Source: Dehalococcoidia bacterium UBA2160 (GTDB lineage Bacteria > Chloroflexota > Dehalococcoidia > Lucifugimonadales > UBA1123). Taken from it: 64,000 nucleotides of DNA. Of this stretch, positions 1 through 18,499 are shown piece by piece. The translations under genes were made by a program, and so were the position numbers. The stretch is taken from positions 27,633 through 91,632 of the forward strand of contig DCWO01000139.1 in assembly GCA_002328865.1 (NCBI GenBank). Reading direction: 5' to 3'. The notes under the pieces are model-generated. The model saw only the letters and a program-made list of their open reading frames with translations. It did not search any database and was not told the origin of the DNA. The number at the start of each line of letters is the position of its first letter. Within the stretch, counting starts at the first letter, position 1.

Positions 1-1080
1 GTCTGTGTCGAACAGGACGTTGGCCTCGGCTAGGCGAACCTGCTTCGCGTGCAGCGCGAGTAGCTGCTCCACCGCATCGTGCGCCGACCGGAATCCACCG
101 GAATCCTCGGCCTCTTCGCCGGAGATGATGAGGGGCGTCCGGTCCTGGTCGATGAGCACGTGATCCGCCTCGTCGACGATGACCGTGTCGAGTGGTCCCT
201 GCACGGGCAGCTCAGGCGGCAGTCTGAGGTTGTCCCGAAGGTAGTCGAAGCCGATCTCCCTGGCGGTGGAGTAAACCACTTGGCGCCCGTACGCGAGCCG
301 GCGTTCGTCGTCTTCCATCGAAGACAGGACGGCGTCGACGCTGATGCCAAGCGACGAGTAGACCGGAGTCAGCCAATCAGCGTCTCGCTGGGCCAGGTAG
401 TCGTTGGCCGTGACGACGTGAACCGACCTTCCCGAAGACGCGGCAACTATCGCAGCCAGCCCCGCCGAGACCGTCTTCCCCTCACCCGCATCCATCTCCA
501 CGATGGCGCCACGGAGCAGCAGCGCGGCTGAGATCGTCTGCTCTCGGGTCGGGGTGAATCGCAGCTCTGAGCCGGCGTCCAACGCGGCGAGCGCTTCGTA
601 AAATGACCCTGGCAGCGCGACGTCCGCCGGTTGGATGGTTTCAAGCATCTCGCGACCGCGCACGATTCCTCGCATAACCTCGCGTTCTTCTGCTGGCAGC
701 GAGAGATCATCGAAGACCTGGCTTGCGCGGGTCGCAGGCTCGTTGGCCAATTCGTAGCAATGAAGGAGCGAGTCGGGGACCTGTTCCCGGTCGAACGCCC
801 GCCACGCCCCCAGACGCCGCTCCATGGCGACGCCGGCTAGGGTGAGCGCTTGTGAGATCGATGCGAGGGATTCTGGGCGTCGTGAGACGGCCTGCAACTC
901 TGATCGGAGCTCAGCGTCCGACAGACGACGGCAGTCGGGACCGGCTGCGTCAGCGAGGTCGGCGCAACGAGCAGCCCGTCGCAAAGCTCGCTCATCCGGC
1001 GACGCGGAACGCTCGCGCAGCCAACCTGGCAGCGCGGTCGCCCCTTTGATGAGATCAATTGTTTCTCGCAGTATGCTCAC
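1..1080 (-). CDS. SecA-like DEAD-motor ATPase, N-terminal 360 codons (gene continues past the left window edge)
   Basis: Not in the ORF track because there is no stop inside the window. Found by translating the reverse complement from GTG at 1080 (VSILRETIDLIKGATALPGW...). SecA NBD1 hallmarks occur in order: IVEMDAGEGKTVSAGLAA (Walker A), HVVTANDYLAQRDADW, YSTAREIGFDYLRDNL, VIVDEADHVLIDQDRTPLIISG (DEAD box). An in-frame stop lies upstream at 1147-1149. GTG 1080 is the first start and lies 10 nt after the stop of the upstream gene. Confidence 0.85.
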   Translation of the reverse strand, partial: MSILRETIDLIKGATALPGWLRERSASPDERALRRAARCADLADAAGPDCRRLSDAELRSELQAVSRRPESLASISQALTLAGVAMERRLGAWRAFDREQVPDSLLHCYELANEPATRASQVFDDLSLPAEEREVMRGIVRGREMLETIQPADVALPGSFYEALAALDAGSELRFTPTREQTISAALLLRGAIVEMDAGEGKTVSAGLAAIVAASSGRSVHVVTANDYLAQRDADWLTPVYSSLGISVDAVLSSMEDDERRLAYGRQVVYSTAREIGFDYLRDNLRLPPELPVQGPLDTVIVDEADHVLIDQDRTPLIISGEEAEDSGGFRSAHDAVEQLLALHAKQVRLAEANVLFDTD

Positions 1081-1090
1081 GTGCGTCCCG

Positions 1091-2431
1091 TCAACCGTGG
1101 CTTTGACCGCTCGTCCTGGACTTGGGCGCCGCGTTCGGAGTCGGCTTCAGAGGCCTGCGCACTGACGAAGGCGCCATGCCCGCCCGCAGCGCGGCCATCA
1201 CGCCCGCAGCTTCCCAGTAATTGTCGACGACGTACAACTGCCCGGTGTCCCAGGGCAACCGAGCCAGGTCGTTTCGCATAACGTTCCGGTTCTCGCGCAC
1301 CGCGATCACCGGGATGCCTTGCTCCAGGGCCGCGAGGGTCGGAAGGCCGATGCAGCCGTCCGGGATGACCAGGCACGACACGTCCGCGGCGGTGATCACA
1401 CCGGGCATTTTCATCGCGTCGCCGTCCGATACGATTCGAGGAGAGCGCTGCAAGCCCTTGAGCACGCACTGAAGGAACGTGTTAGAGATGACCTCAGCCG
1501 CCATGCGGGGATCGACCACGCCCGGGTCCACGTTCGCGACCTCGTCCGACTCCATCATGGGCGCGTGCGCGGTCGGCACGTCGTAGATGCACGATGCCGT
1601 ATGAGTCAGCAGTGCCTCGACGCCGCCCCAGGGATTGATCATCTCCCCGCCGCTGGTGAAATAGTCCATGTGGTAGGGCATGGGAACGTCGATCACGGAG
1701 GCGATGGCCACGGCGTCGAAACTGCCTTCCCAAACGTCGAAGGCGTTGACCAACCCTTCGAACCCCTCGACTTCGCCGGTGGCGCGCCCGGAGTCCGAGT
1801 AGTGGCTGATCAGCCGAAGGGGCCGATCCAATACCGCCGTGCCTGCTATGTCCAACCCGTACGTGGCATGAGCGGCGTTGACAGCGTTGACGGTCGAGGT
1901 CACCCACTTGGGATCGTGGTCGGCGTCAATGGCGACCAACACGCGGTTCGAGCGCATCTTTCGCAGACCGGCGGTCCCCATCATCAGTCTGGAGAGCACG
2001 CTGCCTTCGACATACAGGCCGTTGTCGGGCATTTCGTTGATGTCGGATGCGTTGACCACGTTTGGGTGGGTGATCAGCGTCTCGCAGACCTCGGCGAGCA
2101 TGCGAGCCACGGGCGTTGCGTCGCCGGAGTGCCCGCCGATCTCGGCGCCGATGCCGGTTGGCACGATGAACACCGCGGTGAACGAATCGGTGTTCTCCCA
2201 GGGACGCTTCGAGAAGTCGAAAATCGAGGCTATGGACGGCAGGCGTTCGGAGTCGGTCCGCTCAATCAATCCGACTTCGCACTCGAATCTATTGTCCGAC
2301 GATTCGCTGACAACGAACCGTACGGGCACGCGATCGTCGCCCAAAGCGTCGGCTACACCTGCACGGGCGCGATCAAGGACGTCGTCGCCCCACGGGTTCG
2401 GGATCGTCAACTCTCGTTCAGCTAACCGCAA
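1091..2431 (-). CDS. conserved hypothetical protein, possibly DUF3326-family (TGIGAEIGGHSGDA motif)
   Basis: 446-aa ORF with non-biased composition. It overlaps the upstream decarboxylase gene by 14 nt (TTG start at 2431; an alternative TTG lies about 2410). The motif FIVPTGIGAEIGGHSGDA matches my recollection of DUF3326. The family name is from memory only and is unverified. Confidence 0.8.
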   Translation of the reverse strand: MRLAERELTIPNPWGDDVLDRARAGVADALGDDRVPVRFVVSESSDNRFECEVGLIERTDSERLPSIASIFDFSKRPWENTDSFTAVFIVPTGIGAEIGGHSGDATPVARMLAEVCETLITHPNVVNASDINEMPDNGLYVEGSVLSRLMMGTAGLRKMRSNRVLVAIDADHDPKWVTSTVNAVNAAHATYGLDIAGTAVLDRPLRLISHYSDSGRATGEVEGFEGLVNAFDVWEGSFDAVAIASVIDVPMPYHMDYFTSGGEMINPWGGVEALLTHTASCIYDVPTAHAPMMESDEVANVDPGVVDPRMAAEVISNTFLQCVLKGLQRSPRIVSDGDAMKMPGVITAADVSCLVIPDGCIGLPTLAALEQGIPVIAVRENRNVMRNDLARLPWDTGQLYVVDNYWEAAGVMAALRAGMAPSSVRRPLKPTPNAAPKSRTSGQSHG

Positions 2432-3605
2432 CCTGACTTGCTCCGTTCCTGGCGGCGAAATCGCCGTAGCTAGTTGACTGTAGTAGAGTCAACTCTCCCG
2501 ATTCAAGCATCGCGTAGGCGTCGGGAAGGTTGATTCCGTTGAACGTGTGAGCCTTGGGTTGTGTGTACGCTCCCATGCCAAGGATCGCGACCCTGCTGCC
2601 CGGCGTCAGCGGCTCTTCGAATCGGTAGTCGCCCAGAACGTCTCCGGCGAGGCATGACCTGCCGGCCAGTATGTATCTGTGCGACCCGTCCGGCGCATAG
2701 TCGAGGACATCCGGTTCGTATTGGTACTCGAAGACCTCGGGCATGTGGTTCACGGAGGTGTCGAGCACGGCGACGTCGACCCCTCCGCTGTCGAACACGT
2801 CGAGGACCGTGCTGACGATGAAACCTGCGTCGGCGACGAACGCGGCCCCGGGTTCGATGAATATCTCGATCTCCCGGTCGCTCCTCAGCAACGCGGAGGC
2901 GTCGTTGAGCGGAGCAAAATCGGTGGCTGAGCCAAAGGTGTAGCCTCCGCCAAGGTTCACCCAATCCATTCGGTCGAGGAGCAGCCCGAGCCGGTCGTCG
3001 ACTGCTGACGCCGTTGCGAACAGATCGAGAAGGTCGTCGGATTCGCAGTTTGTGTGCATGAGCAGCCCTTGAGCCACCGCGGAGATGTCGTGGGATCCGT
3101 GTTCGGCCGCGATGATCCGCTCGATAGGCGCTCCGAGTTTCGAGTGCCTACGACAGGGATCGTACCTTTCATCCGAAACGAACGAAATGCCCGGATTCAG
3201 TCGCAGGCCGGGGCTTGTCAGGTCCGGCGTCTCCGGTCCGTACCGCTCCAACTGGCCGATCGAGTTGAATGAGATGTAGTCGCAGCTTCGCCCTATCTCG
3301 GCGAACTCATGCTCGGCGACGGCAACTCCGTAGTAGTGGACCTTGCGCGAGTCGCCCAGGACCTGCCGCGCAAGCCGGATTTCGAAGGGCGAGCTGGCGG
3401 TAAACCCGGTCACGTGCGCCGCCAGCTCCTCCATGACCCACGATAGCGTGCACGGCTTCATGGCGTACAGGAGCGACACGCCGGCATCGTCGGTTGCGGC
3501 GCGGATTCGTCTGGCCGAGTCAGACAACTCAGCCTGAGAGAACACCAGCGCCGGCGTCTCCGGGACGGCGGCCAACGCCGCACGGATTTCAGCAGTGTCT
3601 AGCAT
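2418..3605 (-). CDS. nspC: carboxynorspermidine/carboxyspermidine decarboxylase family PLP enzyme (NspC/CANSDC homolog)
   Basis: 395-aa ORF, collinear with my recollection of Vibrio NspC along its whole length. Shared segments: YAMKPCTLSWV (PLP-Lys region), TASSPFEIRLA, ISFNSIGQL, GLRLNPGISF, HSKLG, LMHTNCES, MDWVNLGGG, IFIEPGAAF, GRSCLAGD, FEEPLTPGSRV, GAYTQPKAHTFNGINLP. Confidence 0.9.
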   Translation of the reverse strand: MLDTAEIRAALAAVPETPALVFSQAELSDSARRIRAATDDAGVSLLYAMKPCTLSWVMEELAAHVTGFTASSPFEIRLARQVLGDSRKVHYYGVAVAEHEFAEIGRSCDYISFNSIGQLERYGPETPDLTSPGLRLNPGISFVSDERYDPCRRHSKLGAPIERIIAAEHGSHDISAVAQGLLMHTNCESDDLLDLFATASAVDDRLGLLLDRMDWVNLGGGYTFGSATDFAPLNDASALLRSDREIEIFIEPGAAFVADAGFIVSTVLDVFDSGGVDVAVLDTSVNHMPEVFEYQYEPDVLDYAPDGSHRYILAGRSCLAGDVLGDYRFEEPLTPGSRVAILGMGAYTQPKAHTFNGINLPDAYAMLESGELTLLQSTSYGDFAARNGASQVAVS

Positions 3606-3638
3606 CGAGTCTCCGAGCCTTAATAGACCTGTAATTTA

Positions 3639-5159
3639 TCACACCGGCGGCTTCGGGTTCTTGCCAAGTCCGATCAACACAAGGCCCGCCTGATGACCGG
3701 CGCCTTCGAAGTAGTCGTATCTCTCCAACAAATGGTCCCGGCTGTCTTCGATAGCATCCGCGACGCTCGGCGTTCGGCGTCGCAGATCGCGGCCGAGCGG
3801 GGAGTCGAGAGACCAGGACGGGCTGATCTCCAACGGCAACCCCTCCGGCTCGCACGCTGTGGCGTACTGTTGTTTGAGCGATTCAAACTCATCCTCGCTC
3901 TCATATACGACCGGTGTGACGAACACCGATTCATCGATGTACAGGCCCAGCTCGTTGTCGAACACCTGAACCAGGTCGATCTCCGGCACGAGGTTCTCCA
4001 TCGCGTAGTACAAATCTTCAACGAGGCTTTGATCGGCCCGGTGGTAGTAGAACTGTTCACTGACCTCGGCCATCCGGACGGGCAGCGGTTTCTTCTGAGA
4101 ATAGTCCAGGTATTCCGATGCCTCCGCGCCTTCGACAAACAGGAACGGTATGTTCCCGTTTGTGGCGTCCACAAGCAACTCCACGCCATCCAGATCGTAG
4201 AGCAGCGCGACGTGTTGCCAGTAGCGCATGTGCCGCTTGGAGAACGAGTAGTCGAAGGTGTCCAGAATCTGGCGCAACGCGTCCTCGGGCGGTGGTTTTG
4301 GGATGCCGGGGCCCGATAGCACATAGCTCGACTCGAGTCCGAGGCCGTCGGTCAGGAACTTGAGCGCTTGGACCTTTTCGGAGCATATCCCGCCTCGGCC
4401 TTCGGCGACGCTGAACACGGTTTCGTCGCCGGTCTTGTACCGGAGTTTGTTTCCAGTGAACCGGGAGTAACTCTCGAAATCGGCGCGCCAAATGCGCTTG
4501 GCAAGGCAGCGGACGAGCTCAGTCGAAGCCTCGCGGGATCCCAGGGCCAAGATCTCATCGTGCTTCGAACCGCGATGGGTCTGCGACACCGTGTCGTTCA
4601 CGAAGTCCTCGAAGAACGAGCGGTTTCGATCCCATCGACGCCGGTGAAACCCGGCCCAGTTGCGAGCGTAGCCTGCTGGCCCGCGATCGAAGGTCAGCGC
4701 TATGACTTCGATGGGGACGCCATCCGCCACAATCCTGGCCACTCTCGGCGTATCCGATGCGCCAAGCGGTTTGTCGTATTGGAGTATCGAGGAGTTCGGA
4801 ATCGGGTGCGTGAGCCGTCCCGCGTCTGTGAGCACGTAGCTGGCATCCTGGAGCGCCAACAACGACTGGGCAGAGGACGCCGACATGCGCTGCTGCGCCA
4901 CGAGAGTGTCCACCGGGCAGTAGCGAAGGTGCTTGTCGACGAGGGCGCCAACGGTTAGCCGCACGTCTTCGGGCTCGATTCGGATCGCAGACGTGCGATC
5001 GGTGAGGGCGTCGGTCATCTGGACGAACACTGGCGGTCGAGTGTCCGAACCGCGTGGAAGGTCACGCCGGGTCGATTCCGCTGAACTTTGCTGCTCCATG
5101 GGCCCCTGCACCGGCTCAAACTGGTACGAGCCAATTATACAGATGAGGCGGCGAGACAT
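3639..5159 (-). CDS. hypothetical protein with putative transglutaminase-like (papain-fold) Cys-His-Asp core
   Basis: 506-aa ORF, first gene of the operon, 33 nt upstream of the decarboxylase gene. GRGGICSEKVQALKFL (Cys), then His 57 aa later in RYWQHVALLY, then Asp 15 aa later in LLVDATNG. This spacing is typical of transglutaminase-like cores. The true start may be an internal Met (MEQQSS or MTDAL). Confidence 0.75.
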   Translation of the reverse strand: MSRRLICIIGSYQFEPVQGPMEQQSSAESTRRDLPRGSDTRPPVFVQMTDALTDRTSAIRIEPEDVRLTVGALVDKHLRYCPVDTLVAQQRMSASSAQSLLALQDASYVLTDAGRLTHPIPNSSILQYDKPLGASDTPRVARIVADGVPIEVIALTFDRGPAGYARNWAGFHRRRWDRNRSFFEDFVNDTVSQTHRGSKHDEILALGSREASTELVRCLAKRIWRADFESYSRFTGNKLRYKTGDETVFSVAEGRGGICSEKVQALKFLTDGLGLESSYVLSGPGIPKPPPEDALRQILDTFDYSFSKRHMRYWQHVALLYDLDGVELLVDATNGNIPFLFVEGAEASEYLDYSQKKPLPVRMAEVSEQFYYHRADQSLVEDLYYAMENLVPEIDLVQVFDNELGLYIDESVFVTPVVYESEDEFESLKQQYATACEPEGLPLEISPSWSLDSPLGRDLRRRTPSVADAIEDSRDHLLERYDYFEGAGHQAGLVLIGLGKNPKPPV

Positions 5160-5448
5160 GCCTCACCGTCGCGAATCACACGAGGTGCGGCGCAAGGCGG
5201 TGTGGTCGGTAAGGGAGTGTCCGTGAGGCGGAATGAGGAGCGGCGATCTCGTGGCTGCGACTATGGCGTCAAAGGCATGCCGAATACACATAGGGCGCAC
5301 TTGATCGGACTACACCGTTGAAAGAGACCTGGCGCCGCCACACGCCCCGCGCGCTGGGCAGGAGAATCACGCGGAACGCGAGCGACGCCCGGTGGAGAGA
5401 TTCTGGTTCGTCGTTCGATTCTATGGCGACCGTGGCGGTCGCTCCGGG

Positions 5449-5730
5449 TTATGCTGACTTGGTTTCGTTAATTCGCGCTCGGCAAGAAGGGCAGCCGCAT
5501 TGCTTCGGCTCTCGCAGCATGTCGCGGAAGATTAGCTGGACCATCTCTTTCTCGGTTAACCTAAACGAACTGCCGATAGCGACGAACTCGATCAGTCGGG
5601 TGCTCTTGTCGGCCTGTTCGGCCTCGCTCAGTTCTTCGCCGTGGAGCAGGTTCTTTTTCGCGTAACCCTTGAGCGCCTTGAGATGCTCGGCAACCGCGTC
5701 ACGTGGATCGTTCAGCTCAGTGTGCGTCAT
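5449..5730 (-). CDS. small hypothetical protein (93 aa) with C-terminal CGCPSC motif
   Basis: ORF with balanced, helix-like composition (MTHTELNDPRDAVAEHLKALKGYAKK...). Same strand as the downstream operon and 290 nt upstream of it. No family recognised. Confidence 0.5.
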   Translation of the reverse strand: MTHTELNDPRDAVAEHLKALKGYAKKNLLHGEELSEAEQADKSTRLIEFVAIGSSFRLTEKEMVQLIFRDMLREPKQCGCPSCRARINETKSA

Positions 5731-6113
5731 GTCTCGTCTCCTGCCTGTTCGTCAAGGAGCTTGCCTTGGCTTCCACTAGAGGCTAGATACACGTTCGGCG
5801 CTCCTGCCCAAACCGCGACGGTGGGTGGGACCACTAAGGATTATCTGCATACATCCCTTTATTTTTCGTAGGGTACTTGTACATAGTATTCGACGAATTG
5901 TCGTTGGACGCCGAATGCGAACTCCGATTTTGGGCAGAGCGTCAAGCGACCGGTTTGTAGCTGGGAGCGAATTCAGAACATGACGAATGGGCGCTGCGGG
6001 GTGAAGCGGGTTCGCAAGGACAAGACGAACTGCCCAGGCGATGTCCGTCAGGCAGTTTCAGTGGATCTGAACCCGATGGCGTCGTCGTCCTGATGACTGC
6101 CCGTCGAGGAGGT

Positions 6114-6365
6114 CTAGAAGTAAAATCCGGGTTCTTCCTCGAAGTCGGGAAGATGGTTGGCCAATCGCCAAACGTTGGCGGCAGCCGAGACGACGGATTC
6201 GTGGGCGTTGTGAGCTTCGGATTCGCCCCACAGCTCGGCGGCGCGGCGCTCCATTTCCCTTCTGATCTCAGCCTCGGTGGTTGCAGTTCGTTCGTTTGAT
6301 CGCGTCACGGCAGCCCTCTCGCGCGCAAACGCGGGTACATCTCCCGCGTTCCGAATTGACACCAA
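6114..6365 (-). CDS. small hypothetical protein (start uncertain)
   Basis: 83-aa ORF with a TTG start that overlaps the consensus rpmH promoter. An internal GTG or ATG (MERRAAELWGESEAHN...) is a more plausible start. No family recognised. Confidence 0.35.
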   Translation of the reverse strand: MVSIRNAGDVPAFARERAAVTRSNERTATTEAEIRREMERRAAELWGESEAHNAHESVVSAAANVWRLANHLPDFEEEPGFYF

Positions 6366-6385
6366 TTTTTGGGAATCATTATAAT
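6356..6385 (+). promoter_or_regulatory. sigma-70-type promoter for rpmH (TTGACA - 18 nt - TATAAT)
   Basis: Perfect -35 TTGACA at 6356-6361, an 18-nt spacer, and perfect -10 TATAAT at 6380-6385, 25 nt upstream of the rpmH ATG. Confidence 0.6.
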
Positions 6386-6410
6386 CGTTAGGTATGTGAG
6401 GTAGCCATCA

Positions 6411-6548
6411 ATGCCAAAGAGAACTTATCAGCCACGAAAACGCCGTCGGGCCAGGGTCCACGGCTTCCGATCGAGAATGAGATCACGAGACGGCCGCAAC
6501 GTAATTAAGCGACGCATGTTCAAGGGACGAAGTAGACTTACTGTTTGA
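6411..6548 (+). CDS. rpmH: 50S ribosomal protein L34
   Basis: Too short for the ORF track; self-translated as [45 protein letters not shown] (45 aa). This is the canonical L34 sequence. Confidence 0.95.
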
Positions 6549-6643
6549 TTCTTCGAACCCCCCGAGTCCTGCGCGTCCCTTTTTTGGGCCGCGCGGTATA
6601 ATCAGCGCGCCTGAAGGCGGGGACTGGCTTTTGCCAGGCGCCT

Positions 6644-6976
6644 ATGCAGAGAGAACGCCGTCTGAGAAAGTCGAGCGATTTTGCTGCTGCGCGACGACAC
6701 GGTCGGAGTTGGGCGGACCCGCTGCTCGTGTTGATCGCTCGGCGCAACGGCGCGGACGCCAGCCGATTCGGATTCGCCGTGGGCCGCCGCGTTGGCAACG
6801 CCGTTGTCCGCAATCAGATCAAGCGGCGTCTGCGCGCATTGACGCGCCCTGTCGACATCGCGGATGGGTGGGACTTGTTGTTCATCGCCCGGCAAGGCGC
6901 CGCCAACTCGAGCTTTTCGGAACTGGCGAGGGCCGTGTCGAGACTTCTCAAACGTTCCCGCGTAGCGAGTTTGTGA
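6644..6976 (+). CDS. rnpA: ribonuclease P protein component
   Basis: 110 aa with [24 protein letters not shown]...[23 protein letters not shown], the typical RnpA motif region. It sits directly after rpmH. Confidence 0.9.
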
Positions 6977-7019
6977 CAAAACGCATGACGTTCTCAAACC
7001 GACCGTGGCGGCTTCCGAC

Positions 7020-7229
7020 ATGAAGAGACTCGCTCTCGGCGCCGTAAGGTTGTACCAACTAGTCCTGTCTCCGTACTGGCCTGGGGCTTGCAGGCATACG
7101 CCGACTTGTTCCCACTACGCCACCGAGGCAATACAGAAACACGGCGCCGGCAAAGGAGTCTGGCTGACCGTCGGTCGGCTGGGCCGATGCCGCCCATTTG
7201 GCACAAGCGGATACGATCCGGTGCCGTGA
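7020..7229 (+). CDS. yidD: membrane protein insertion efficiency factor YidD
   Basis: [69 protein letters not shown] is the full YidD signature. The track ORF begins at GTG 7005; ATG 7020 is preferred. Confidence 0.9.
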
Positions 7230-7500
7230 ACTGCGAAATCGAAGATTTGCGGCGCGTCGATGGCGCCGCGTTGTGACAAGGATTGGCGTCGAATGCGCAC
7301 TCAACCGACTTACATATTGAAGCATGCTGCGGCTCTGAAAGAACTGACAAGGCCGAAGAACGGCTCAATTGACCAGGCGATTTGCTGCCGTCGCATGACA
7401 AAATGAAGCAGCGAACGGTATCGGCCTGAATGTTCAGAAGACTTAATGCTGTGTGGGGCATCGACGGCAGTCGCCCCACCGAGATATTGGAATCGTTCGG

Positions 7501-8661
7501 ATGTTGAAAACAACTGGATCCGGCCCGCGCAAAGCAGGAATAATATTCGCGGCACTGGCTTTGGCCCTGATGGCCGGCGCCTGCAGTCGCATCAGTAATC
7601 CACAAGGATGGTCCGGGGTCGCCGCGTCCGGAGATACGCTCGTCGTTGGAACCCAGGAAGGGCAACTCCTCGCTATCGACAAGAACGATGGCTCGACCTT
7701 GTGGCGTCGCGATCTGATAGGCGAGGAAGATGAGCACGCGATCTACGGCGCCCCGATCGTCGATGGCGAAGTGGTGTTCGCCGGCAGCTACGACGGCAGG
7801 TTGTACGCGTTCGACCTCGAAGGATTGCCAGCCCGGTGGGGTGACAGGAGGCTAGACGACCGGATAGTTGGCGGACTGACGTTGGCCGGCGAGTCGATTG
7901 TGGTTGGGTCCGTATCCTTGGCCGACGACGGCGAAGACGAAGGTACGCTTTGGGCTCTGGATGCCGTCACCGGAGACGAACTGTGGCGATTCACCACCCC
8001 GGGACCGATCTGGACGACGCCCACGGTTGCCGACGGGCTGGTTTTCATCGGCACGCTGAACCAGATGATTTACGCAGTCAACCTCAGCGACGGCCAGAAA
8101 GCCTGGCAGTTCGAAACAGGCGGCGGCGTCGTGGCCAAGCCCCTCGTGTCGAACGGCCGTGTGTACGTTGGCGCGTTCGACAGCGTCTTCTACGCGCTAG
8201 ACGCCAAGACCGGCGCCGAGGCCTGGAGATTCTCAGAAGCGGAGAAGTGGTTCTGGGCCGGGGCGATTGCCCGCGACAACCTGATACTGGCGCCCTCGCT
8301 GGACGGAAACTTGTACGCTCTCGACGCGACTTCAGGCTTTCCTCAGTGGAAGATCGAATCCGAAGGTTCCATCGTGGGCTCCCCTGTGATCGTCGGAGAC
8401 CTGATCGCGGTTCCGATAGCCGATGGCGGAGAGTCGAAAATCTCCCTCGTTGAGATCAATGGGAGCCAGCGTGAGGCGTGCAAGATCGGCGAAGATGTGA
8501 GAACGCCGCTGTCGACGGACGGAGAACTGATATACTTTGCCGCGACAAATCATTCGATTTGGGCGCTTCGCATCAAGCAAAACGGAAACCCGGACGAAGA
8601 GTGGGTGTATTTTACTGACCAAGACGACCCGATTCCGAGAGATCGGAGCAAGGCGTGTTAG
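7501..8661 (+). CDS. PQQ-like beta-propeller repeat lipoprotein (BamB-like fold)
   Basis: Signal peptide and lipobox (AALALALMAGAC). Repeated motifs of the type G.L.A.D..tG...W / G.vy.g..dg.lyAld occur about eight times (LYAFDLEG, LWALDAVTGDELW, IYAVNLSDGQKAW, FYALDAKTGAEAW, LYALDATSGFPQW). ATG 7501 is preferred over GTG 7453. Confidence 0.85.
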   Translation: MLKTTGSGPRKAGIIFAALALALMAGACSRISNPQGWSGVAASGDTLVVGTQEGQLLAIDKNDGSTLWRRDLIGEEDEHAIYGAPIVDGEVVFAGSYDGRLYAFDLEGLPARWGDRRLDDRIVGGLTLAGESIVVGSVSLADDGEDEGTLWALDAVTGDELWRFTTPGPIWTTPTVADGLVFIGTLNQMIYAVNLSDGQKAWQFETGGGVVAKPLVSNGRVYVGAFDSVFYALDAKTGAEAWRFSEAEKWFWAGAIARDNLILAPSLDGNLYALDATSGFPQWKIESEGSIVGSPVIVGDLIAVPIADGGESKISLVEINGSQREACKIGEDVRTPLSTDGELIYFAATNHSIWALRIKQNGNPDEEWVYFTDQDDPIPRDRSKAC

Positions 8662-8678: not shown

Positions 8679-9599
8679 TTGGAATTCATAATCGACACCT
8701 GGAATTTGGTAATCATCCAGCCGATGATCAATGGCTTGGTGATGTTGTACAGTGTATTCTTCAGCAACTTCGGCATCGCTGTGATCGCGTTCACGCTGAT
8801 TGTCCGGATGATCATGATCCCCTTGTCCGTCAAGCAGAGCCGTCAGATCAAGTCAATGGGCGCACTTCAGCCGCTGATGAAGGAGATCCAGGCAAAGCAC
8901 AAAAACGACAAGCAGCGGGCATCCCAAGAGACGATGCGCCTGTACAAGGACCACGGAGTCAACCCGCTGGGTTGCCTGGGACCGATGTTCATCCAGTTCC
9001 CGATTTGGATCGGCCTGTACCAGGCGATCCTGCAAACGGTGCCTTCGAATCCCGAGAGCCTCGTCGGCCTGTCCCGTCACCTGTATGGCTGGCTTCCGCA
9101 GGTTCACAAGGTAGTGCCGATCGACAGTTCGTTCCTCTGGCTGGACCTGGCCAAGCCAGATCCTTCGCCGTTCATTATGCCCATTTTGGTGGGCGGCTCG
9201 ATGTTCGTAATGCAGAAGATGTCGAGCATGCCGGCCGCGGACGACCGGCAGGCATCGACAAATCGTATGATGTTGTGGATGATGCCGCTGATGTTCGGTT
9301 TCTTCACGCTGAATTTCCCGAGCGGACTGGCAGTGTATTGGGTGGTTTCAAACGTGATTGGGGTGGCGATTCAGGGGTTCATCACTGGTTGGGACCCGCT
9401 GAAGAACCTGTTCGCCTTCGGGCGCGCCGCCGATCAGGCGAGTACGGTCAGCACGACGCCTTCGCTGGCTTTGCCCACCGAGGAGACGGTAATCAATGAC
9501 GGAGATAGTAATAACGGCCAAGACAGTGGACGAAGCAATCGAGCTCGCCCTAAAGGAGCTCGACGCCGAGCGCGCCGAGGTAGAAATAGACGTCGTTAG
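8679..9599 (+). CDS. yidC: membrane protein insertase YidC (short, monoderm type, with Arg-rich C-terminal tail)
   Basis: 306 aa with a TTG start preceded by GAGG. YidC/Oxa1 core motifs are present: QIKSMGALQPLMKEIQAKHKNDKQRASQETMRLYKDHGVNPLGCL, and FLWLDLAKPD...PILVGGSMFVMQKM. The tail is ...RARPKGARRRARRGRNRRR. Confidence 0.92.
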   Translation: MEFIIDTWNLVIIQPMINGLVMLYSVFFSNFGIAVIAFTLIVRMIMIPLSVKQSRQIKSMGALQPLMKEIQAKHKNDKQRASQETMRLYKDHGVNPLGCLGPMFIQFPIWIGLYQAILQTVPSNPESLVGLSRHLYGWLPQVHKVVPIDSSFLWLDLAKPDPSPFIMPILVGGSMFVMQKMSSMPAADDRQASTNRMMLWMMPLMFGFFTLNFPSGLAVYWVVSNVIGVAIQGFITGWDPLKNLFAFGRAADQASTVSTTPSLALPTEETVINDGDSNNGQDSGRSNRARPKGARRRARRGRNRRR

Positions 9600-10131
9600 C
9601 CGAGGCAAGGCTGGCATACTCGGGATCGGCAGTGAGCCGGCCAAGGTGCGGGCGGTTCTTCTGGATGCTCCGTCCGACATTGTCACGACGACCACCGAGG
9701 TGCTCGACAAAGTTGTGTCGTTGCTCGGAGTTGACGTGGTCACCTCGCTGACCAACGCCGAGAAAGAAGACCTCGGCGGTCCAGCTTTCGACATCGAAGG
9801 TGACGACGCCGGGCTGCTCATCGGACGGCGAGGCGAAACCCTGAAGTCGCTCCAGTTCCTCGTCAAGTACATGGTCAGCCAGCGACTGGGCGTCAACGCC
9901 AACCTTCAGGTGGACGTCGAAGGCTACCAGGAGCGCAGGAACCAGGCTCTGGCCAACATGGCCCGTCGCGTGGCGCAGCGCGTACTGGATTCAGGGAACC
10001 CCATCAGCCTGGAGCCAATGCCAGCCAACGAACGGCGAATCGTTCACCTGACCCTCGCGGACCACGCACACGTCACCACGGAGAGCGCTGGCTCCGGCGT
10101 GGCCAGGCAGGTTGTGGTGCACCCCAAGTAG
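9496..10131 (+). CDS. jag: RNA-binding protein Jag/KhpB (Jag_N, KH, R3H)
   Basis: MTEIVITAKTVDEAIELALKELDAERAEVEIDVVSRGKAGILGIG is a canonical Jag N-domain. The C-terminus has PMPANERRIVHLTLADH (R3H). A strong SD, AGGAGA at 9481-9486, lies 9 nt before the ATG. Confidence 0.9.
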   Translation: MTEIVITAKTVDEAIELALKELDAERAEVEIDVVSRGKAGILGIGSEPAKVRAVLLDAPSDIVTTTTEVLDKVVSLLGVDVVTSLTNAEKEDLGGPAFDIEGDDAGLLIGRRGETLKSLQFLVKYMVSQRLGVNANLQVDVEGYQERRNQALANMARRVAQRVLDSGNPISLEPMPANERRIVHLTLADHAHVTTESAGSGVARQVVVHPK

Positions 10132-14343: not shown

Positions 14344-14388
14344 CGCCTCTATCCTATGCCGAAACTCAACTTAGTCCGTCCGTCCTGA

Positions 14389-14423
14389 GTCCCGACGCAT
14401 CGGGATCCCGGCTTTGTCGGGAC
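14389..14423. terminator. nested GC-rich hairpins between convergent genes (likely bidirectional terminator)
   Basis: GTCCCGAC (14389-14396) pairs with GTCGGGAC (14416-14423). Inside, TCCCGA-CGCA-TCGGGA and TCCCGG-CTTTG-TCGGGA can form alternative hairpins. The element lies between the ligase stop (14343) and the serS stop (14542). Confidence 0.45.
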
Positions 14424-14541
14424 CTGCCGAAGGACCCCGACGTGCCAAGTATCGCCACGCGACCAGCGAGCGCCGACAACATTAGCTGAAATTCCTTCAC
14501 TGACTGCCCCCAGGAACTGTCCCGCGAGGGTGTGGCGGCGA

Positions 14542-15813
14542 TCAGCCTTCCGGCGCCTCGATCTTGTCGAATCCGGCGTACGGCCTCAGCACCTCAGGGA
14601 CGGCGACTGAGCCGTCTTCCTGCTGATAATTCTCAAGCACGGCGATCATGACTCGCGACAACGCCAGTCCCGATCCGTTCAGCGTATGCACGAACCTCGG
14701 CCTGGCCCCTTGCTCCGGACGATATCGAATCATAGCTCGACGGGCTTGGTAGTCGGTGCAGTTCGAGCAAGAACTGACCTCCAGCCATTCCTCCGCTCCC
14801 GGCGCCCACAACTCGATGTCGAAGGACTTAACCGCCGGGGCGGACATGTCGCCAGTGCACAGCTCCAGCACTCGATACGGGATCTCCAGCATCGCAGCGA
14901 CACTCTCCGCGTCCGCGACCAGCTTCTGAAGCTCCTCGGTGGACGTTTCGGGTTCCACGAACTTGTACATCTCCACCTTCTCGAACTGGTGGACTCGCTT
15001 GATGCCCCGCGTGTCGCGGCCCGCGGAGAACTTCTCACGTCGCCAGCACGGCGTGTGAGCGACATAGTTCAAGGGCAGGGTCCCAGCGTCCAGGATTTCG
15101 TCCCTGTGCAGGCTGGTGATGCCGGCCTCTGCCGTCGGCAGCATCCAGAGATCGTCCTCTTCGTCGTGATACATCTCTTCTTGAAAATGAGGCAAGTGTC
15201 CGCTGGCGGTCATCGTGTCTCGGCCAACCATATACGGCAGATAGACCTCTGTGTAGCCGTGCTCTCTGCTGTGGAGGTTCAGCATCCACGTGATCAGCGC
15301 TCGTTGAAGCGCGGCGCCCTTTCCGTGGAGCACGAAGAACCGCGAGCCGGACAGCTTGACTCCGCGTTCGAAGTCGATGACGTTAAGCGATGGGCCTAGC
15401 TCCCAGTGCGGTTTCTGCTCGAAGCTCTGCTCGCGCGGTTCGCCAACGGAGCGGACCACGACGTTGGAGGACTCATCCAACCCCACGGGCGCGTCATCTT
15501 GCGGGATGTTGGGGATCGAAAGCAATATCTCGTTCAGTTGTTCGTCGAAGTCGCGCAGCGCCCCTTCAAGCTGCTTGATGCGGCCGCCTACCTGGCGCAT
15601 CTCGTCGATCAGTTCCTGCGGTCGATCCTTGGAGCGACCGATCTCGCGGCTGACATCGTTTCGACGAGAGCGGAGTTCGTCCGCCTCGACGATGGCGGCG
15701 CGCCGTTGCCGGTCGAGGTCGAGAACCACGTCTAACGGCGCATCGTGACCGCGATTTTGCATGGCGGTGCGGACCAGATCGGTGTGGTCTCGAATGGTTT
15801 CTATGCTAATCAA
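14542..15813 (-). CDS. serS: seryl-tRNA synthetase
   Basis: 423 aa with a TTG start. N-terminal coiled-coil arm (IETIRDHTDLVRTAMQNRG...) and class II core (FFVLHGKGAALQRALITWML, TAEAGI, PCWRREKFSAGRDTRGIKRVHQFEKVE, TLNGSGLA). Confidence 0.95.
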   Translation of the reverse strand: MISIETIRDHTDLVRTAMQNRGHDAPLDVVLDLDRQRRAAIVEADELRSRRNDVSREIGRSKDRPQELIDEMRQVGGRIKQLEGALRDFDEQLNEILLSIPNIPQDDAPVGLDESSNVVVRSVGEPREQSFEQKPHWELGPSLNVIDFERGVKLSGSRFFVLHGKGAALQRALITWMLNLHSREHGYTEVYLPYMVGRDTMTASGHLPHFQEEMYHDEEDDLWMLPTAEAGITSLHRDEILDAGTLPLNYVAHTPCWRREKFSAGRDTRGIKRVHQFEKVEMYKFVEPETSTEELQKLVADAESVAAMLEIPYRVLELCTGDMSAPAVKSFDIELWAPGAEEWLEVSSCSNCTDYQARRAMIRYRPEQGARPRFVHTLNGSGLALSRVMIAVLENYQQEDGSVAVPEVLRPYAGFDKIEAPEG

Positions 15814-15862: not shown

Positions 15863-16984
15863 TCAGGAGAGGATCTCTCGTAAACGCTGAGCGATGATCT
15901 GCTCGCCGTTTTCTTTGAGGGTCAGCATTCGGACGGCGAGCCCGTTGTCATCCTGGTGTTCTCGGACCCATATGCTCGGGTTCCCCGCTCGGAGTTCTTC
16001 GATGACGTCACCCGCTGTCTTGCCGACGACATCGGCGTCTATCTCTATGAACAGTCCTTCCGCCGGTCCATGGGCGGGGTAGTCGGACAGCGTTATGCCG
16101 CTCAAACCAGTGAGATCGGACCTGAGGGCCGAGATCCGCACCTCGTAGGCGGCGAAACGGTCCTCATGATTCATGGTCAGCCACTCGCGAAGCGCGCCGT
16201 AGACCGCGACGACCTCCTGGCGGTCCACCTTCATGGGACGTCCGAAGGAGCGGACAGAAGAGTCCTCGAATCCGATGAAGCTGTGCTTGCGCGCAACGTC
16301 CACGAGTTCTTTGCGGCCTGTGAGCACCCCGCTGGAGTTTACGGCCCCGAAGTATTTGGCGCCGTAAGCGACCAGGTCTGCGCCCATGTTTACGTACGCG
16401 CTAAGAAGGTCGGTCGGGTAAACTTGTCCGGCTGCATCGACGATGATCGGCACATCGTGAGCGTGGCCGATCTCGATGACGGTCTCGATCGGCAACGCGC
16501 CCGGCGTGCGGTCTCCCGGCGCCAGGTAGTGGATCGCGGCGGTGTTGGGGCCGATTGCCGCCTCGAGTTGGTCGACGGTAGTCCGGTCTTCATCGCCGAT
16601 CTCTACTAGTTTGCCGCCCGGAATCGTCATGCATCGATCGTACTTGACCCGAAGCTGGCGTTGGATCAGTATTTCGCTTCGCATCCCTGTCGTATCCGGC
16701 ATGCGCTCGATGTTGTCTTGATTGTCGCCCGAAATGATCGCGGCCGCTCCAACGGCCAAAGCCGCGGAGCATCCCGAGGTGACCAGAGCCGCTTCGACGC
16801 CAAGCATGTCAGCGATGCGGTGACCGACGCTGTCCATCAGTTCGCCGAGATTGACGTAGAACTCCTCGGAGTCGTCCATCAATGTGCGCACCGTCTCGGA
16901 TGGTGTGCCGCCGCCGAGCAGCGTTCGATTGCCCTGCGCGTTCAGCACGGGTCTGACGTTCAACTCTTCGAAGATGCTGGCCAT
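15863..16984 (-). CDS. SelA-like / DgaE-like fold-type I PLP-dependent enzyme
   Basis: About 373 aa. VTSGCSAALAVGAAA, IIVDAAGQ, and GADLVAYGAKYFGAVNSSGVL (putative PLP Lys) resemble the SelA/D-glucosaminate-6-P ammonia-lyase family. ATG 16984 is preceded by GGAGG. The track ORF begins at 16996. Confidence 0.75.
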   Translation of the reverse strand: MASIFEELNVRPVLNAQGNRTLLGGGTPSETVRTLMDDSEEFYVNLGELMDSVGHRIADMLGVEAALVTSGCSAALAVGAAAIISGDNQDNIERMPDTTGMRSEILIQRQLRVKYDRCMTIPGGKLVEIGDEDRTTVDQLEAAIGPNTAAIHYLAPGDRTPGALPIETVIEIGHAHDVPIIVDAAGQVYPTDLLSAYVNMGADLVAYGAKYFGAVNSSGVLTGRKELVDVARKHSFIGFEDSSVRSFGRPMKVDRQEVVAVYGALREWLTMNHEDRFAAYEVRISALRSDLTGLSGITLSDYPAHGPAEGLFIEIDADVVGKTAGDVIEELRAGNPSIWVREHQDDNGLAVRMLTLKENGEQIIAQRLREILS

Positions 16985-17168
16985 GGGCGCCTCCATTGGG
17001 CTGTCGGATTGCAGGATATTCTATGGCTACGGCTGAGCCTGCGCAACCCTCGGCGGACCAGACTCCCCGATCTGGGTTCGACATGCTGGAGGCGGGCTCG
17101 TCAGCATCAGCGTATAATTGCCAGGGGTCGCCTGACGGACGGCGGCAGTGTGCAGCAGGAGGGTTACG

Positions 17169-17534
17169 ATGCCGGAGGGCCATTCGGTGGTGACGGAATA
17201 CGCGGACGAACTGGTCCAAACCCCTCGGGCCCACCTAAGACTTGAACTCAAACAAGACGAAGACGGACTGTCGCTGGAGCATACTGGTCAGCTCCTCGCC
17301 AGATGTCACCTGAGCAGGGAGGGCATGGTGGCGGGAGGATTCTTGGCAAAAGCCCTTGGTGTGCCGATTCCTCCGATCGGAGAATCGGTGACCGCCCGGG
17401 TCTCGACAGGTGTGCTGTACCGTGCTCTGGGAATCTGTCAGTTGGACTTCGAAGAGGAATCTTCTTTCGTGCTCTTGGAGCGTCTGCTCGACGAAGCCGA
17501 GATGCAACGGGGCGCTCGAAGCGACGCCGAGTAG
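17169..17534 (+). CDS. hypothetical protein
   Basis: 121 aa from ATG 17169, with a strong SD (AGGAGGG at 17157-17163, 5-nt spacer). Composition is normal. No family recognised. Confidence 0.55.
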   Translation: MPEGHSVVTEYADELVQTPRAHLRLELKQDEDGLSLEHTGQLLARCHLSREGMVAGGFLAKALGVPIPPIGESVTARVSTGVLYRALGICQLDFEEESSFVLLERLLDEAEMQRGARSDAE

Positions 17535-17616
17535 TCGTCTGCGTTGATTTGGCCTCCGGTTGGCTCTATAATCGTTGCGGATTTTGTGATGCACGCGAAG
17601 AGAGGTCGGAAGTTCT

Positions 17617-18039
17617 TTGCCTGTTGATTACGGTGCCCTCTCGCCCGGACAGACGATTTCACGGCACACATACGTCGTGGACGACGCCATGGTCGATCGC
17701 TACGTGGACGCAGTTCAAGACGAATCGCACATGGCAACGGAGCGCGAACTGGCGCCTCCGATGTCAATCGCGGCTCTGAGTCTGACAGGCGTGGTTCAAG
17801 ACCTCCAAATCCCTGGCGGGACGCTTCACGTCGGCCAGGAGTTTCAGTTTTCGGGAGCGGTTTCGGTCGGCGCCACGCTTGAGTGCGTGGCCACGTTGAA
17901 GACGAACTCCATCCGCGGCGGTTGGAGGTTCATGGTGGTGGACTCGGTGGTTACGGAAGGGGGAAACCGGCTGGTGATGACCGGAAAGAGCACCATTACG
18001 CTTCCCGAAGACCTCGCTGGCGGCGGGGCTGGAAAGTGA
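17617..18039 (+). CDS. MaoC/hotdog-fold protein lacking the hydratase motif (HadA-like, probable non-catalytic dehydratase subunit)
   Basis: 140 aa with a TTG start. Hotdog-like length and pattern (GQEFQFSGAVSVGATLECVATLK...RFMVVDSVVT). No D-x-N-P-x-H motif. Its stop overlaps the start of the next gene (GTGA). Confidence 0.7.
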   Translation: MPVDYGALSPGQTISRHTYVVDDAMVDRYVDAVQDESHMATERELAPPMSIAALSLTGVVQDLQIPGGTLHVGQEFQFSGAVSVGATLECVATLKTNSIRGGWRFMVVDSVVTEGGNRLVMTGKSTITLPEDLAGGGAGK

Positions 18040-18440: not shown

Positions 18441-18499
18441 ACCGTCATGCGAGTGGATTGTTTTCAAGGGGCTGGGTTTGAAGACGAGGAGGGAACGTT

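Follow-up and report, generated by a model that had tools for sequence, protein, structure and literature searches.

We analysed a stretch of 64,000 nucleotides from Dehalococcoidia bacterium UBA2160 (Chloroflexota; assembly GCA_002328865.1, contig DCWO01000139.1, positions 27,633 to 91,632; this whole stretch is called the window here), at the left edge of which four minus-strand genes, named A to D, encode a putative acyl-transfer enzyme, a carboxy(nor)spermidine decarboxylase (CANSDC) homologue, a DUF3326 protein and a divergent SecA-like ATPase. We find that this locus forms the upstream end of a larger conserved cluster of envelope-associated type, which continues with two further genes, E and F, and which is typical of Dehalococcoidia (SAR202), being present in about 90% of the sampled related species. 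Judged by its gene content, the cluster belongs with the PspA-linked DUF350/polyamine clusters, of which it represents a Dehalococcoidia variant that carries a lineage-specific SecA-like gene. The explanation we favour, to which we assign a probability of about 0.5, is a model according to which B and C would make a polyamine that is amide-linked by A, and the motor D would serve the lipoprotein E with F as an accessory protein, all of them contributing together with DUF350, DUF4178, a K+ channel and PspA to the maintenance of the membrane.

An operon of at least six genes

The window contains the following genes of the cluster:

Gene A: 3639-5159, minus strand, 506 aa when counted from the first ATG; the start taken by gene callers (ATG at 5099) gives 486 aa.
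Gene B: 2418-3605, minus strand, 395 aa; pyridoxal phosphate (PLP)-dependent (fold III) decarboxylase of the carboxy(nor)spermidine decarboxylase family.
Gene C: 1091-2431, minus strand, 446 aa; DUF3326 protein (PavB-type), the partner of the decarboxylase.
Gene D (5' part): 1-1080, minus strand, GTG start at 1080, 360 codons running off the left edge; SecA-like ATPase.

The genes are separated by a 33-nt gap (A-B), a 14-nt overlap of the start of C with the end of B and a 10-nt gap (C-D), exactly as described in an initial annotation of this DNA made from the sequence alone. This annotation had also named B as a full-length carboxy(nor)spermidine decarboxylase homologue, C as DUF3326-like and D as an ATPase containing the first nucleotide-binding domain (NBD1) of SecA, and all three assignments hold in the profile searches reported below. 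Identical DNA was found on contigs of up to ~140 kb from TARA Oceans and other marine metagenomes (among them locus L001), labelled 'SAR202 cluster bacterium' by NCBI (Chloroflexota, Dehalococcoidia). On these contigs D, which the annotation had proposed to complete beyond position 1, extends from 11352 to 14570 of L001 and encodes 1072 aa with all four SecA Pfam domains; it is followed after an 18-nt gap by E (272 aa) and, with a 4-nt overlap, by F (326 aa). Since A to F are all co-directional on L001, with spacings of 33, -14, 10, 18 and -4 nt, the unit has at least six genes, not the four originally described; DUF350 and DUF4178 lie alongside, and in some genomes PspA-PspAA is added. On the opposite strand beyond F a tetratricopeptide-repeat lipoprotein is encoded together with two further proteins:

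DUF350 membrane protein: L001 17674-18561, opposite strand to A-F; PF03994, E 3.3e-56.
DUF4178 protein: L001 18587-19171, opposite strand to A-F; PF13785, E 8.9e-6, 26.3 bits at a cut-off of 25 bits.

Internal promoters or terminators were searched in 1-5159, and none was convincing, the counts not exceeding the shuffled expectation, which neither proves nor disproves co-transcription; an Rfam scan of window positions 1-8000 at E <= 0.1 gave no riboswitch or RNA leader. In agreement with the initial annotation, SecY and a saccharopine-dehydrogenase-like carboxynorspermidine dehydrogenase are missing among the large open reading frames (ORFs) checked in the 64-kb window, and for the dehydrogenase this holds for the 10 large window ORFs checked as well as for the recurrent neighbours in 83 loci. 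A second SecA is also missing among the large window ORFs checked.

The cluster is conserved and reshuffled within Dehalococcoidia

A scan of one genome per GTDB species yielded 247 relatives of A. The best 80 of these, all from Dehalococcoidia, SAR202 or Chloroflexota metagenome-assembled genomes, were taken as species loci; close homologues of A number in the hundreds, nearly all from Chloroflexota. Co-occurrence was counted by local tblastn with the cluster proteins, 63 of the 80 species loci having full 10-kb flanks, and the counts for DUF350 and DUF4178 are limited by the reach of the flanks:

D (SecA-like): 57 of 63 full-flank species loci.
E: 56 of 63 full-flank species loci.
F: 56 of 63 full-flank species loci.
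DUF350: 42 of 63 full-flank loci; 50 of 80 species loci.
DUF4178: 36 of 63 full-flank loci; 41 of 80 species loci.
K+ channel with RCK domain: 39 of 63 full-flank loci; 52 of 80 species loci.
B or C: 31 of 63 full-flank species loci.
K+ channel or B/C: 56 of 63 full-flank species loci.

The neighbourhood thus recurs in 57 of 63 species loci, and its conservation, on which the initial annotation had let its proposal stand or fall, is thereby established. The usual order is A, variable inserts, the co-directional genes D-E-F with median gaps of 52 nt (D to E) and 25 nt (E to F), with DUF350 and DUF4178 following on the opposite strand. What is inserted between A and D is a 287-aa protein without assigned function, the K+ channel, a PaaK-like acyl-CoA ligase, a 211-aa protein likewise without assigned function, or B and C. 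The B-C pair lies between A and D, as in the window, in 5 of the 80 species loci, directly upstream of A in 13 and beyond DUF4178 in 21, and the PaaK-like ligase accompanies A in 21. A fixed place of B and C between A and D, as suggested by the single sequence, is therefore not the rule, since the pair takes three alternative positions and is present in only about half of the loci, and the K+ channel often occupies the interval between A and D. D-E-F are almost always adjacent despite the reshuffling of every other gene of the cluster, and genes that are reshuffled yet kept in one neighbourhood are a classic case for functional linkage.

Some relatives of A occur outside this context. In six species A is found without D, E or F and with MFS, hydrolase and PALP genes instead. 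At the level of loci, L037, L044, L054, L062, L065, L077 and L088 have an A homologue (45-49% identical) and no D, E or F within 10 kb, several of them sharing genes for an MFS transporter, a dienelactone-hydrolase-like protein and a PALP protein; the absence is weaker for L037, which is a short contig. These loci may carry a paralogue of A or a broken cluster. In a 3.8-Mb Dehalococcoidia genome (L007) the insertion of an IS1595-family transposase and of a DNA methyltransferase/Mrr-like restriction gene at 16480-18926 separates D from E-F.

Relation to PspA-linked DUF350 clusters

Unbiased clustering of the ORFs of 83 loci recovered the cluster genes named so far and, in addition, PspA/IM30 (PF04012, E 5.7e-27) and PspAA (PF22743, E 6.7e-32), which are encoded as a pair right after DUF4178 in 13 loci. 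Two types of PspA operon with similar content have been described (Ravi et al. 2024, PMC11237479), the first composed of CesT/Tir-PspA, a 7TM-spermine-synthase-like protein, DUF350, the lipoprotein Ctha_1186 and DUF4178, the second of PspA, a GspS-like ATP-grasp enzyme, a ligand-gated K+ channel, DUF350, a DUF1190 lipoprotein and DUF2491; linkages of AdoMet decarboxylase are credited there to Li et al. (2019, Biochem J 476:2579). The cluster reported here has in common with them DUF350, DUF4178, a lipoprotein, the ligand-gated K+ channel, polyamine-type enzymes, a candidate amide-forming enzyme and, in the 13 loci, PspA-PspAA. It differs in that a CANSDC-like decarboxylase and DUF3326 replace the AdoMet decarboxylase and the SpeE-like enzyme, and in that the amide-forming enzyme would be the cysteine enzyme A with its predicted arylamine N-acyltransferase (NAT)/transglutaminase fold instead of an ATP-grasp ligase. 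Moreover, E is not detectably a DUF1190 protein, F has no known family, a CesT/Tir-like gene was not recognised and the SecA-like ATPase D is added. The literature searched contained no experimental function for PspA-linked DUF350 clusters, and to our knowledge a SecA-like ATPase has not been reported in them before. The initial annotation had regarded the combination of genes as not belonging to a described system; as a whole it is a variant of the clusters of PMC11237479, whereas for the SecA-like lineage we likewise found no description.

A distant branch of A (~100 bits, with invariant equivalents of its catalytic triad) is rare and has Lentisphaerae and Planctomycetes as named hosts, i.e. 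members of the Planctomycetes-Verrucomicrobia-Chlamydiae (PVC) group. Three of its loci are organised as follows:

L094 (37% GC), co-directional: DUF350, E-like, F-like, A-like, CANSDC-like decarboxylase, 211-aa protein, K+ channel, methyltransferase, DUF3326.
L095 and L096, co-directional: DUF350, E-like, F-like, A-like, 258-aa protein, PaaK-like ligase, SNase, K+ channel.

The SecA-like gene is absent from all three, suggesting that the core consists of DUF350-E-F-A plus amine, ligase or channel modules, and that D, placed just upstream of E-F in the Dehalococcoidia clusters, is an add-on of this class. The SecA-like gene, which the first reading had put at the centre of the locus, is therefore not part of the core.

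B and C as a candidate polyamine-building module

B matches Orn_Arg_deC_N and Orn_DAP_Arg_deC, both Pfam domains of fold-III PLP decarboxylases. Its best NCBIfam model is nspC (TIGR01047; E 3e-75, end-to-end) with 253.1 bits, i.e. below the equivalog cut-off of 409.05, and among solved structures it is closest to the CANSDC 9eaf (E 2.6e-65, residues 16-386). The PLP lysine K50, H184 and the motifs GGGY (219-222), EPG (251-253) and CLAGD (318-322) are invariant in 17 homologues, and we regard B, as judged from these conserved residues, as catalytically competent. C is assigned to PF11805 (DUF3326) with E 2e-95 and 320.1 bits at a gathering threshold of 25, covering profile positions 1-336 of 337; homologues of at least 57% identity occur in Chloroflexota, Acidobacteria, Planctomycetota, Nitrospinota and Gammaproteobacteria. 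The model of C has a pLDDT (predicted local distance difference test) of 82, and its conserved GIGAEIGGH(A/S)GD loop is of low confidence. We considered C as an analogue of carboxyspermidine dehydrogenase (CASDH), of SpeE or of an NAD enzyme and rejected this, Foldseek returning only generic alpha/beta-sandwich proteins (lumazine synthase, HAD-like) with TM-scores by query of ~0.22.

The association of DUF3326 with decarboxylases extends beyond Dehalococcoidia. In four loci outside this class the DUF3326 gene either adjoins a decarboxylase gene (L090, L091, L092) or lies three genes downstream of one (L094), the decarboxylase being PLP-dependent and CANSDC-like in L092 and L094 and pyruvoyl-dependent and AdoMet_dc-like in L090 and L091. 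One co-directional block in L091 (4819-9338) comprises DUF350, DUF1190, a 70-aa ORF, GSP_synth, AdoMet_dc (123 aa) and DUF3326, which makes DUF3326 also a member of classical yjf-type polyamine/DUF350 clusters, there paired with a pyruvoyl decarboxylase. A conserved fed3-DUF650-DUF3326 gene cluster in cyanobacteria was mentioned in a 2014 review. Three DUF3326 proteins (P0148, P0177, P0179) are named 'high light inducible protein' in NCBI, probably a propagated misannotation.

The only experimental test of DUF3326 function that we found in the literature is a preprint of June 2026 on the pavettamine operon, in which PavA is a Rieske domain joined to a CANSDC-annotated decarboxylase and PavB a DUF3326 protein, and in which strains without pavA or pavB make no N-(5-aminopentyl)pentane-1,5-diamine (bioRxiv 10.64898/2026.06.12.731819). 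In both systems DUF3326 is encoded beside an alanine-racemase-fold, CANSDC-annotated decarboxylase, and in the pavettamine operon both are needed for the C5-N-C5 triamine. In contrast, the N-terminal Rieske domain of PavA and the JmjC hydroxylase PavC have no counterpart here, and the pavettamine operon belongs to a Burkholderia-type endophyte and yields a toxin, whereas the B-C pair sits in an envelope-type cluster. From the pairing of DUF3326 with decarboxylases and the genetics of PavA and PavB we conclude, by analogy, that B and C probably constitute a two-enzyme polyamine-building module. The better-known CASDH/carboxyspermidine decarboxylase route to spermidine and norspermidine is related insofar as B is a full-length CANSDC homologue with all catalytic residues kept; it differs in that B scores below the nspC cut-off, a CASDH gene is not found nearby, DUF3326 takes the neighbouring position and the model of C is unlike CASDH.

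A Septu-like pair, i.e. an AAA_15/AAA_21 ATPase followed by an HNH protein or a protein without assigned function, precedes the decarboxylase-DUF3326 pair in L090 (5440-7483, Phycisphaerales) and L092 (4764-6785, on a 5.6-Mb metagenomic contig). These two independent occurrences may reflect a functional tie of DUF3326 modules to defence-type ATPases, and the direct upstream position in two different phyla could be taken to mean that the cluster as a whole is an anti-phage defence system. We consider this highly improbable and rejected it as the main explanation because PADLOC gave no match for A to D; furthermore, the cluster is inherited vertically, class-wide and as a single locus next to housekeeping genes, unlike defence islands, and its partners PspA, K+ channel and DUF350 point elsewhere.

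Gene A encodes a putative Cys-His-Asp acyl-transfer enzyme

A has no family match in Pfam, NCBIfam or PADLOC at E <= 0.01, Acetyltransf_2 being reached only at E 0.24, and a search of its profile against the PDB found nothing. C239, H296 and D311 are invariant in 29 homologues, within GGICSEKVQALKF, RYWQH and LVDATNGN, respectively, and their order C...H...D is that of the transglutaminase-like/papain-like superfamily, also in style. The AlphaFold model (pLDDT 87, pTM 0.86) retrieved arylamine N-acyltransferases as its top 10 Foldseek matches, all with probability 1.0 (best 8k51_B, E 1.7e-4), and it also matches an N-malonyltransferase and the geldanamycin amide synthase GdmF; the transglutaminase-fold proteases LapG and 3isr rank lower. 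Based on this model, A is best described as a cytoplasmic Cys-His-Asp acyl-transfer enzyme of predicted NAT/transglutaminase-like fold: the C-H-D core of the initial annotation is real, and the invariant triad bears it out, whereas the closest fold is that of NATs and not that of a classical transglutaminase. Enzymes of the NAT type take an acyl group onto their cysteine and pass it on to an amine. A has the Cys-His-Asp triad and the core fold in common with the NAT/amide synthase family (GdmF, RifF); it is distinguished by about 200 additional residues, with a beta-rich domain added at the N-terminus and a helical region at the C-terminus, and sequence similarity to NATs is not detectable and the TM-scores are low.

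The family is small, as an exhaustive profile search of 1.84 billion representatives gave only 174 relatives of A. Fusions of an arginase-family (agmatinase-like) domain with A were found in P0293 (771 aa), P0439 (768 aa) and P0294 (L093, 9439-11713), which constitutes a Rosetta-stone link of A to diamine/polyamine metabolism; in L093 the arginase part is seemingly split by a frameshift into genes of 189 and 570 aa. The PaaK-like ligase found with A in 21 of the 80 species loci points to acyl-CoA donors. The most economical reading, drawn by analogy, is that A would amide-link an acyl donor to the polyamine and thereby take the role of the GspS-like ligase in the proteobacterial clusters.

The same enzymes could also belong to a biosynthetic cluster for a secreted acyl-polyamine, such as a toxin, a siderophore or a pavettamine-like signal, formed by A, B, C and, in relatives, the PaaK-like ligase and unrelated to membrane homeostasis, the nearby membrane genes then serving export or self-protection. 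The sole experimentally studied DUF3326 system indeed makes a polyamine toxin, and NAT-fold amide synthases and PaaK/BagE-type ligases are typical of natural-product pathways. We nevertheless regard this as very unlikely, since the recurrent DUF350, DUF4178, PspA, K+ channel and lipoprotein constitute an envelope-stress signature, neither a dedicated transporter nor a nonribosomal peptide synthetase, polyketide synthase or tailoring oxygenase recurs in the ORF clustering of the 83 loci, and the cluster is conserved vertically across the whole class and is not patchy.

Gene D encodes a divergent SecA-like ATPase

The part of D inside the window matches SecA_DEAD with E 1.8e-61. The full protein matches SecA_DEAD (E 6.7e-73), SecA_PP_bind (E 4.7e-18), P-loop_SecA (E 9.6e-45) and SecA_SW (E 3.5e-6, 27.7 bits, barely over the cut-off of 26.7), and it thus keeps the complete SecA domain set of NBD1, the preprotein cross-linking domain, NBD2 and scaffold/wing. 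Among the 15 D-family members displayed, GEGKT, the DEAD-type motif (DEADH in L001), TNMAGRGTDI and GRxGRQG (GRSGRQG) are all kept. The scores are 489.6 bits at a cut-off of 814 (PRK12904) and 470.5 at 800 (TIGR00963), two further family members reach 458-501 bits and remain below both cut-offs, and D is also below all four SecA2 models (TIGR03714, TIGR04221, TIGR04397, NF012136) with 335-412 bits at cut-offs of 725-1100; PDB chains of SecA2 match D no less well than those of SecA1 do. The loop of the two-helix finger (LRGYAQKDPKQEYK in E. coli; LRGYAQKDP motif) is not conserved in the D family, in which the position is variable (e.g. AIAGPTHREAAAHF in L001 and LGNYGHKSAVADY in L048). The C-terminal zinc finger is missing, the N-terminus is extended by about 100 residues compared to E. 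coli SecA as judged by the position of the Walker A motif, and the identity to E. coli SecA is 29-34%. Within the D family the identity is about 35%, the neighbours A, C and E having 44-61% across the same genomes. NCBI names D 'hypothetical protein', IMG names it SecA.

The scores below the cut-offs, the loss of the two-helix finger and the low identity within the family argue for D being of the accessory type: this is how an accessory paralogue behaves, as far as sequences can tell, and not an essential translocase. In C. difficile and B. anthracis SecA2 genes lie beside those of their dedicated substrates, and D, a divergent SecA-like ATPase beside a candidate dedicated exported protein, resembles accessory SecA2 systems, both the SecA2-only ones (mycobacteria, Listeria, C. 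difficile, B. anthracis) and those of the SecA2/SecY2 accessory Sec (aSec) type. It differs from these by failing all four SecA2 models, by belonging to a Chloroflexota lineage and by the lack of SecY2, Asp and glycosyltransferase genes, none of which was found among the recurrent clusters of 83 loci or among the Pfam matches of L001, L007 and L008; this also bears out the initial statement that accessory-Sec glycosyltransferases do not lie nearby. We know of no described SecA2 in Chloroflexota, and we found no SecA-like lineage corresponding to D in the literature.

D could instead be a diverged housekeeping SecA that stays beside E-F by descent, the functional system then consisting of A, B, C, E, F, DUF350 and DUF4178. 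The complete SecA architecture with its intact ATPase motifs and the name given by IMG are compatible with this, as are the homologous PVC clusters without a SecA-like gene and the lack of a second SecA in the 64-kb window and in ~1.7 Mb of related loci; 1.7 Mb is, however, far too little to expect a chance encounter with a second secA. We consider this possibility unlikely, since the adjacency of D-E-F outlasts the reshuffling of the other genes (in L007 the IS1595 element and the methyltransferase/restriction gene stand between D and E) and since D is less conserved within one class than its non-essential neighbours. Three D-family proteins score 465-501 bits at cut-offs of 800-814, D is 'hypothetical protein' to NCBI, and the finger motif LRGYAQKDP is replaced by variable sequence. 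D is thus not the fully canonical SecA that the initial annotation had named as the case in which its own proposal would fail, its family remaining far below 800 bits and having no conserved two-helix finger.

Genes E and F

In E the lipobox cysteine is invariant, the small N-terminal domain is conserved and a short hydrophobic stretch is present. The tail of E, rich in Tyr, Arg, Ser and Gln, is unusually well conserved and ends with GGFRGGGG; although of low complexity, it holds Q, R and Y residues that are invariant. A relation of E to DUF1190 (YjfM-like) was considered and rejected, as 1 of 25 members gave a match at E 0.083 and hhalign a probability of 0.7% with only a short hydrophobic motif aligned. 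In L014 (16241-17998), L018 (16166-18072), L023, L036 and L048 the E-like tblastn signal extends over 1.7-1.9 kb, about twice the usual gene, pointing either to a second E-like gene in tandem or to a tail that has expanded. L094 encodes a PRMT-like protein (protein arginine methyltransferase-type; 14371-15297) between the K+ channel and DUF3326, and given the arginine-rich tail of E, protein modification in these clusters may merit attention. F carries invariant NPDLPD.Y and G.D.R motifs and has no sequence relatives in Pfam, NCBIfam or the PDB; its alignment gives the impression of a possible winged helix.

The tail of E and the fold of A can also be combined into a quite different scheme of protein polyamination with dedicated export, which gives the speculative reading of the initial annotation a concrete form. 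In it A, as a true transglutaminase, would put the polyamine of B/C on glutamines in the tail of the pre-lipoprotein E while this is still in the cytoplasm, and the modified protein would then need D, with F as a chaperone, for its export. This would parallel the way in which accessory SecA2 systems couple the export of serine-rich proteins to their glycosylation. The C...H...D motif order of A is of the transglutaminase type, with LapG and 3isr among its weaker fold matches, the Q, R and Y residues of the E tail are invariant, the preprotein cross-linking domain is retained in D, the genes D, E and F are hardly ever separated, and SecA2 genes lie beside their own substrates in C. difficile and B. 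anthracis. The best structural matches of A are, on the other hand, small-molecule or thioester N-acyltransferases and not transglutaminases, the PaaK-like ligase in 21 of 80 loci points to acyl-CoA donors, and the PVC clusters keep A, E and F without a SecA-like gene, so that we consider this scheme rather improbable. In a bolder form, A would decorate the Gln/Ser/Tyr/Arg-rich tail with the polyamine, and D, together with F, would have evolved in Dehalococcoidia to export this bulky cationic substrate; we give little credence to this version, which, if true, would be for polyamines what accessory-Sec export is for glycosylation, and no pathway of protein polyamination and export would have been described in bacteria before it.

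A model for polyamine conjugation and membrane maintenance

Coming back to the favoured explanation, our data suggest the following model. B, of the CANSDC family, and C, a DUF3326 protein, would synthesise a polyamine as a pair of the PavA/PavB type, C forming or helping to form a C-N-linked carboxylated intermediate, which B would decarboxylate. In the cytoplasm A would take an acyl group onto its cysteine and transfer it to an amine of the polyamine, giving an amide conjugate, the acyl donor being supplied in sister clusters by the PaaK-like acyl-CoA ligase; A would thereby do the job of the glutathionylspermidine-synthetase-like ligase in proteobacterial DUF350/DUF1190 clusters. D, catalytically intact as judged by its motifs, would use the general SecYEG channel and act for the highly conserved lipoprotein E encoded next to it, F being a cytoplasmic accessory protein. 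Under stress, the products, DUF350, DUF4178, the RCK-gated K+ channel and PspA would jointly adjust the cytoplasmic membrane or shield it. What the analysis itself establishes are the identities of the genes, the conservation of the cluster, the pairing of the decarboxylase with DUF3326, the predicted fold, the triad and the agmatinase-type fusions of A, the divergence of D and the linkage to PspA; the substrates, the direction of the chemistry, the relationship between D and E and the physiological output are what we infer in this model.

Several observations weigh against it. Only about half of the loci have B or C inside 10 kb, and the system can apparently run without B and C nearby. The TM-scores of A with NATs are weak (0.25 when normalised to the query and 0.45 when normalised to the target), and Acetyltransf_2 is matched only at E 0.24. 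C has no recognisable cofactor site, and its profile found no solved homologue in the PDB. No second SecA was found in the 64-kb window or in 88 loci (~1.7 Mb), a sample that covers well under 1% of each genome and is far too small to decide on the role of D, and as the PVC-type clusters hold E, F, A and DUF350 without a SecA-like gene, E does not need D there. PspA is not encoded within ~2.2 kb beyond DUF4178 on L001, the contig of this organism. More generally, the roles are drawn from gene context, from folds and from one preprint on a distant DUF3326 system with a Rieske-fused decarboxylase, and they should be read as analogies.

The observations of the initial annotation are thus confirmed and its interpretation is partly supported. 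Its idea that the decarboxylase and the DUF3326 protein make a polyamine-like molecule is backed by the PavA/PavB experiment and by the universal pairing of DUF3326 with decarboxylases, and an amine-using role of A is backed by the NAT-like fold and the fusions to arginase-family domains.

Neighbouring features

Upstream of the cluster the window contains the following features:

Small ORF: 5449-5730, minus strand, 93 aa, ~290 nt upstream of A; a possible extra gene of uncertain membership.
rnpA: 6644-6976; housekeeping block near the cluster.
yidC: 8679-9599; housekeeping block near the cluster.
jag: 9496-10131; housekeeping block near the cluster.

The 93-aa ORF has a C-terminal CGCPSC motif, gave no family match in Pfam or NCBIfam and is predicted as a gene on L001. 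It is kept upstream of A with 50-89% identity in the nearest relatives only (L009-L013) and not in farther loci; it may encode a small regulatory protein or count as gene number seven of the cluster in its SAR202 version. A sigma-70 promoter matching the consensus in 12 of 12 positions (TTGACA, 18 nt, TATAAT) lies at 6356-6385 on the plus strand, upstream of the rnpA-yidC-jag group, which is typical of the region of the replication origin. We considered yidC as a gene linked to the cluster and rejected it: rnpA-yidC-jag are 1.5-5 kb away, and as they are not kept in more distant loci, where DegV is the upstream neighbour, their proximity is treated as coincidental.

Implications

The locus ties together the function of DUF3326, the PspA-linked DUF350/DUF4178/polyamine clusters, family A and an apparently undescribed SecA-like lineage of Chloroflexota. 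The cluster holds three protein families without models, i.e. A, E and F, of which A represents a new family of predicted NAT/transglutaminase fold that is also fused to agmatinase-like domains. That a polyamine made by B and C is amide-linked by A at the membrane is a hypothesis testable with recombinant proteins. If D is a second SecA dedicated to the lipoprotein E, the SecA2 concept would extend beyond Firmicutes and Actinobacteria. In the deep ocean SAR202 and other Dehalococcoidia are abundant, yet hardly any have been cultured; as about 90% of the sampled species have kept the cluster, it probably has a central place in the biology of their envelope.

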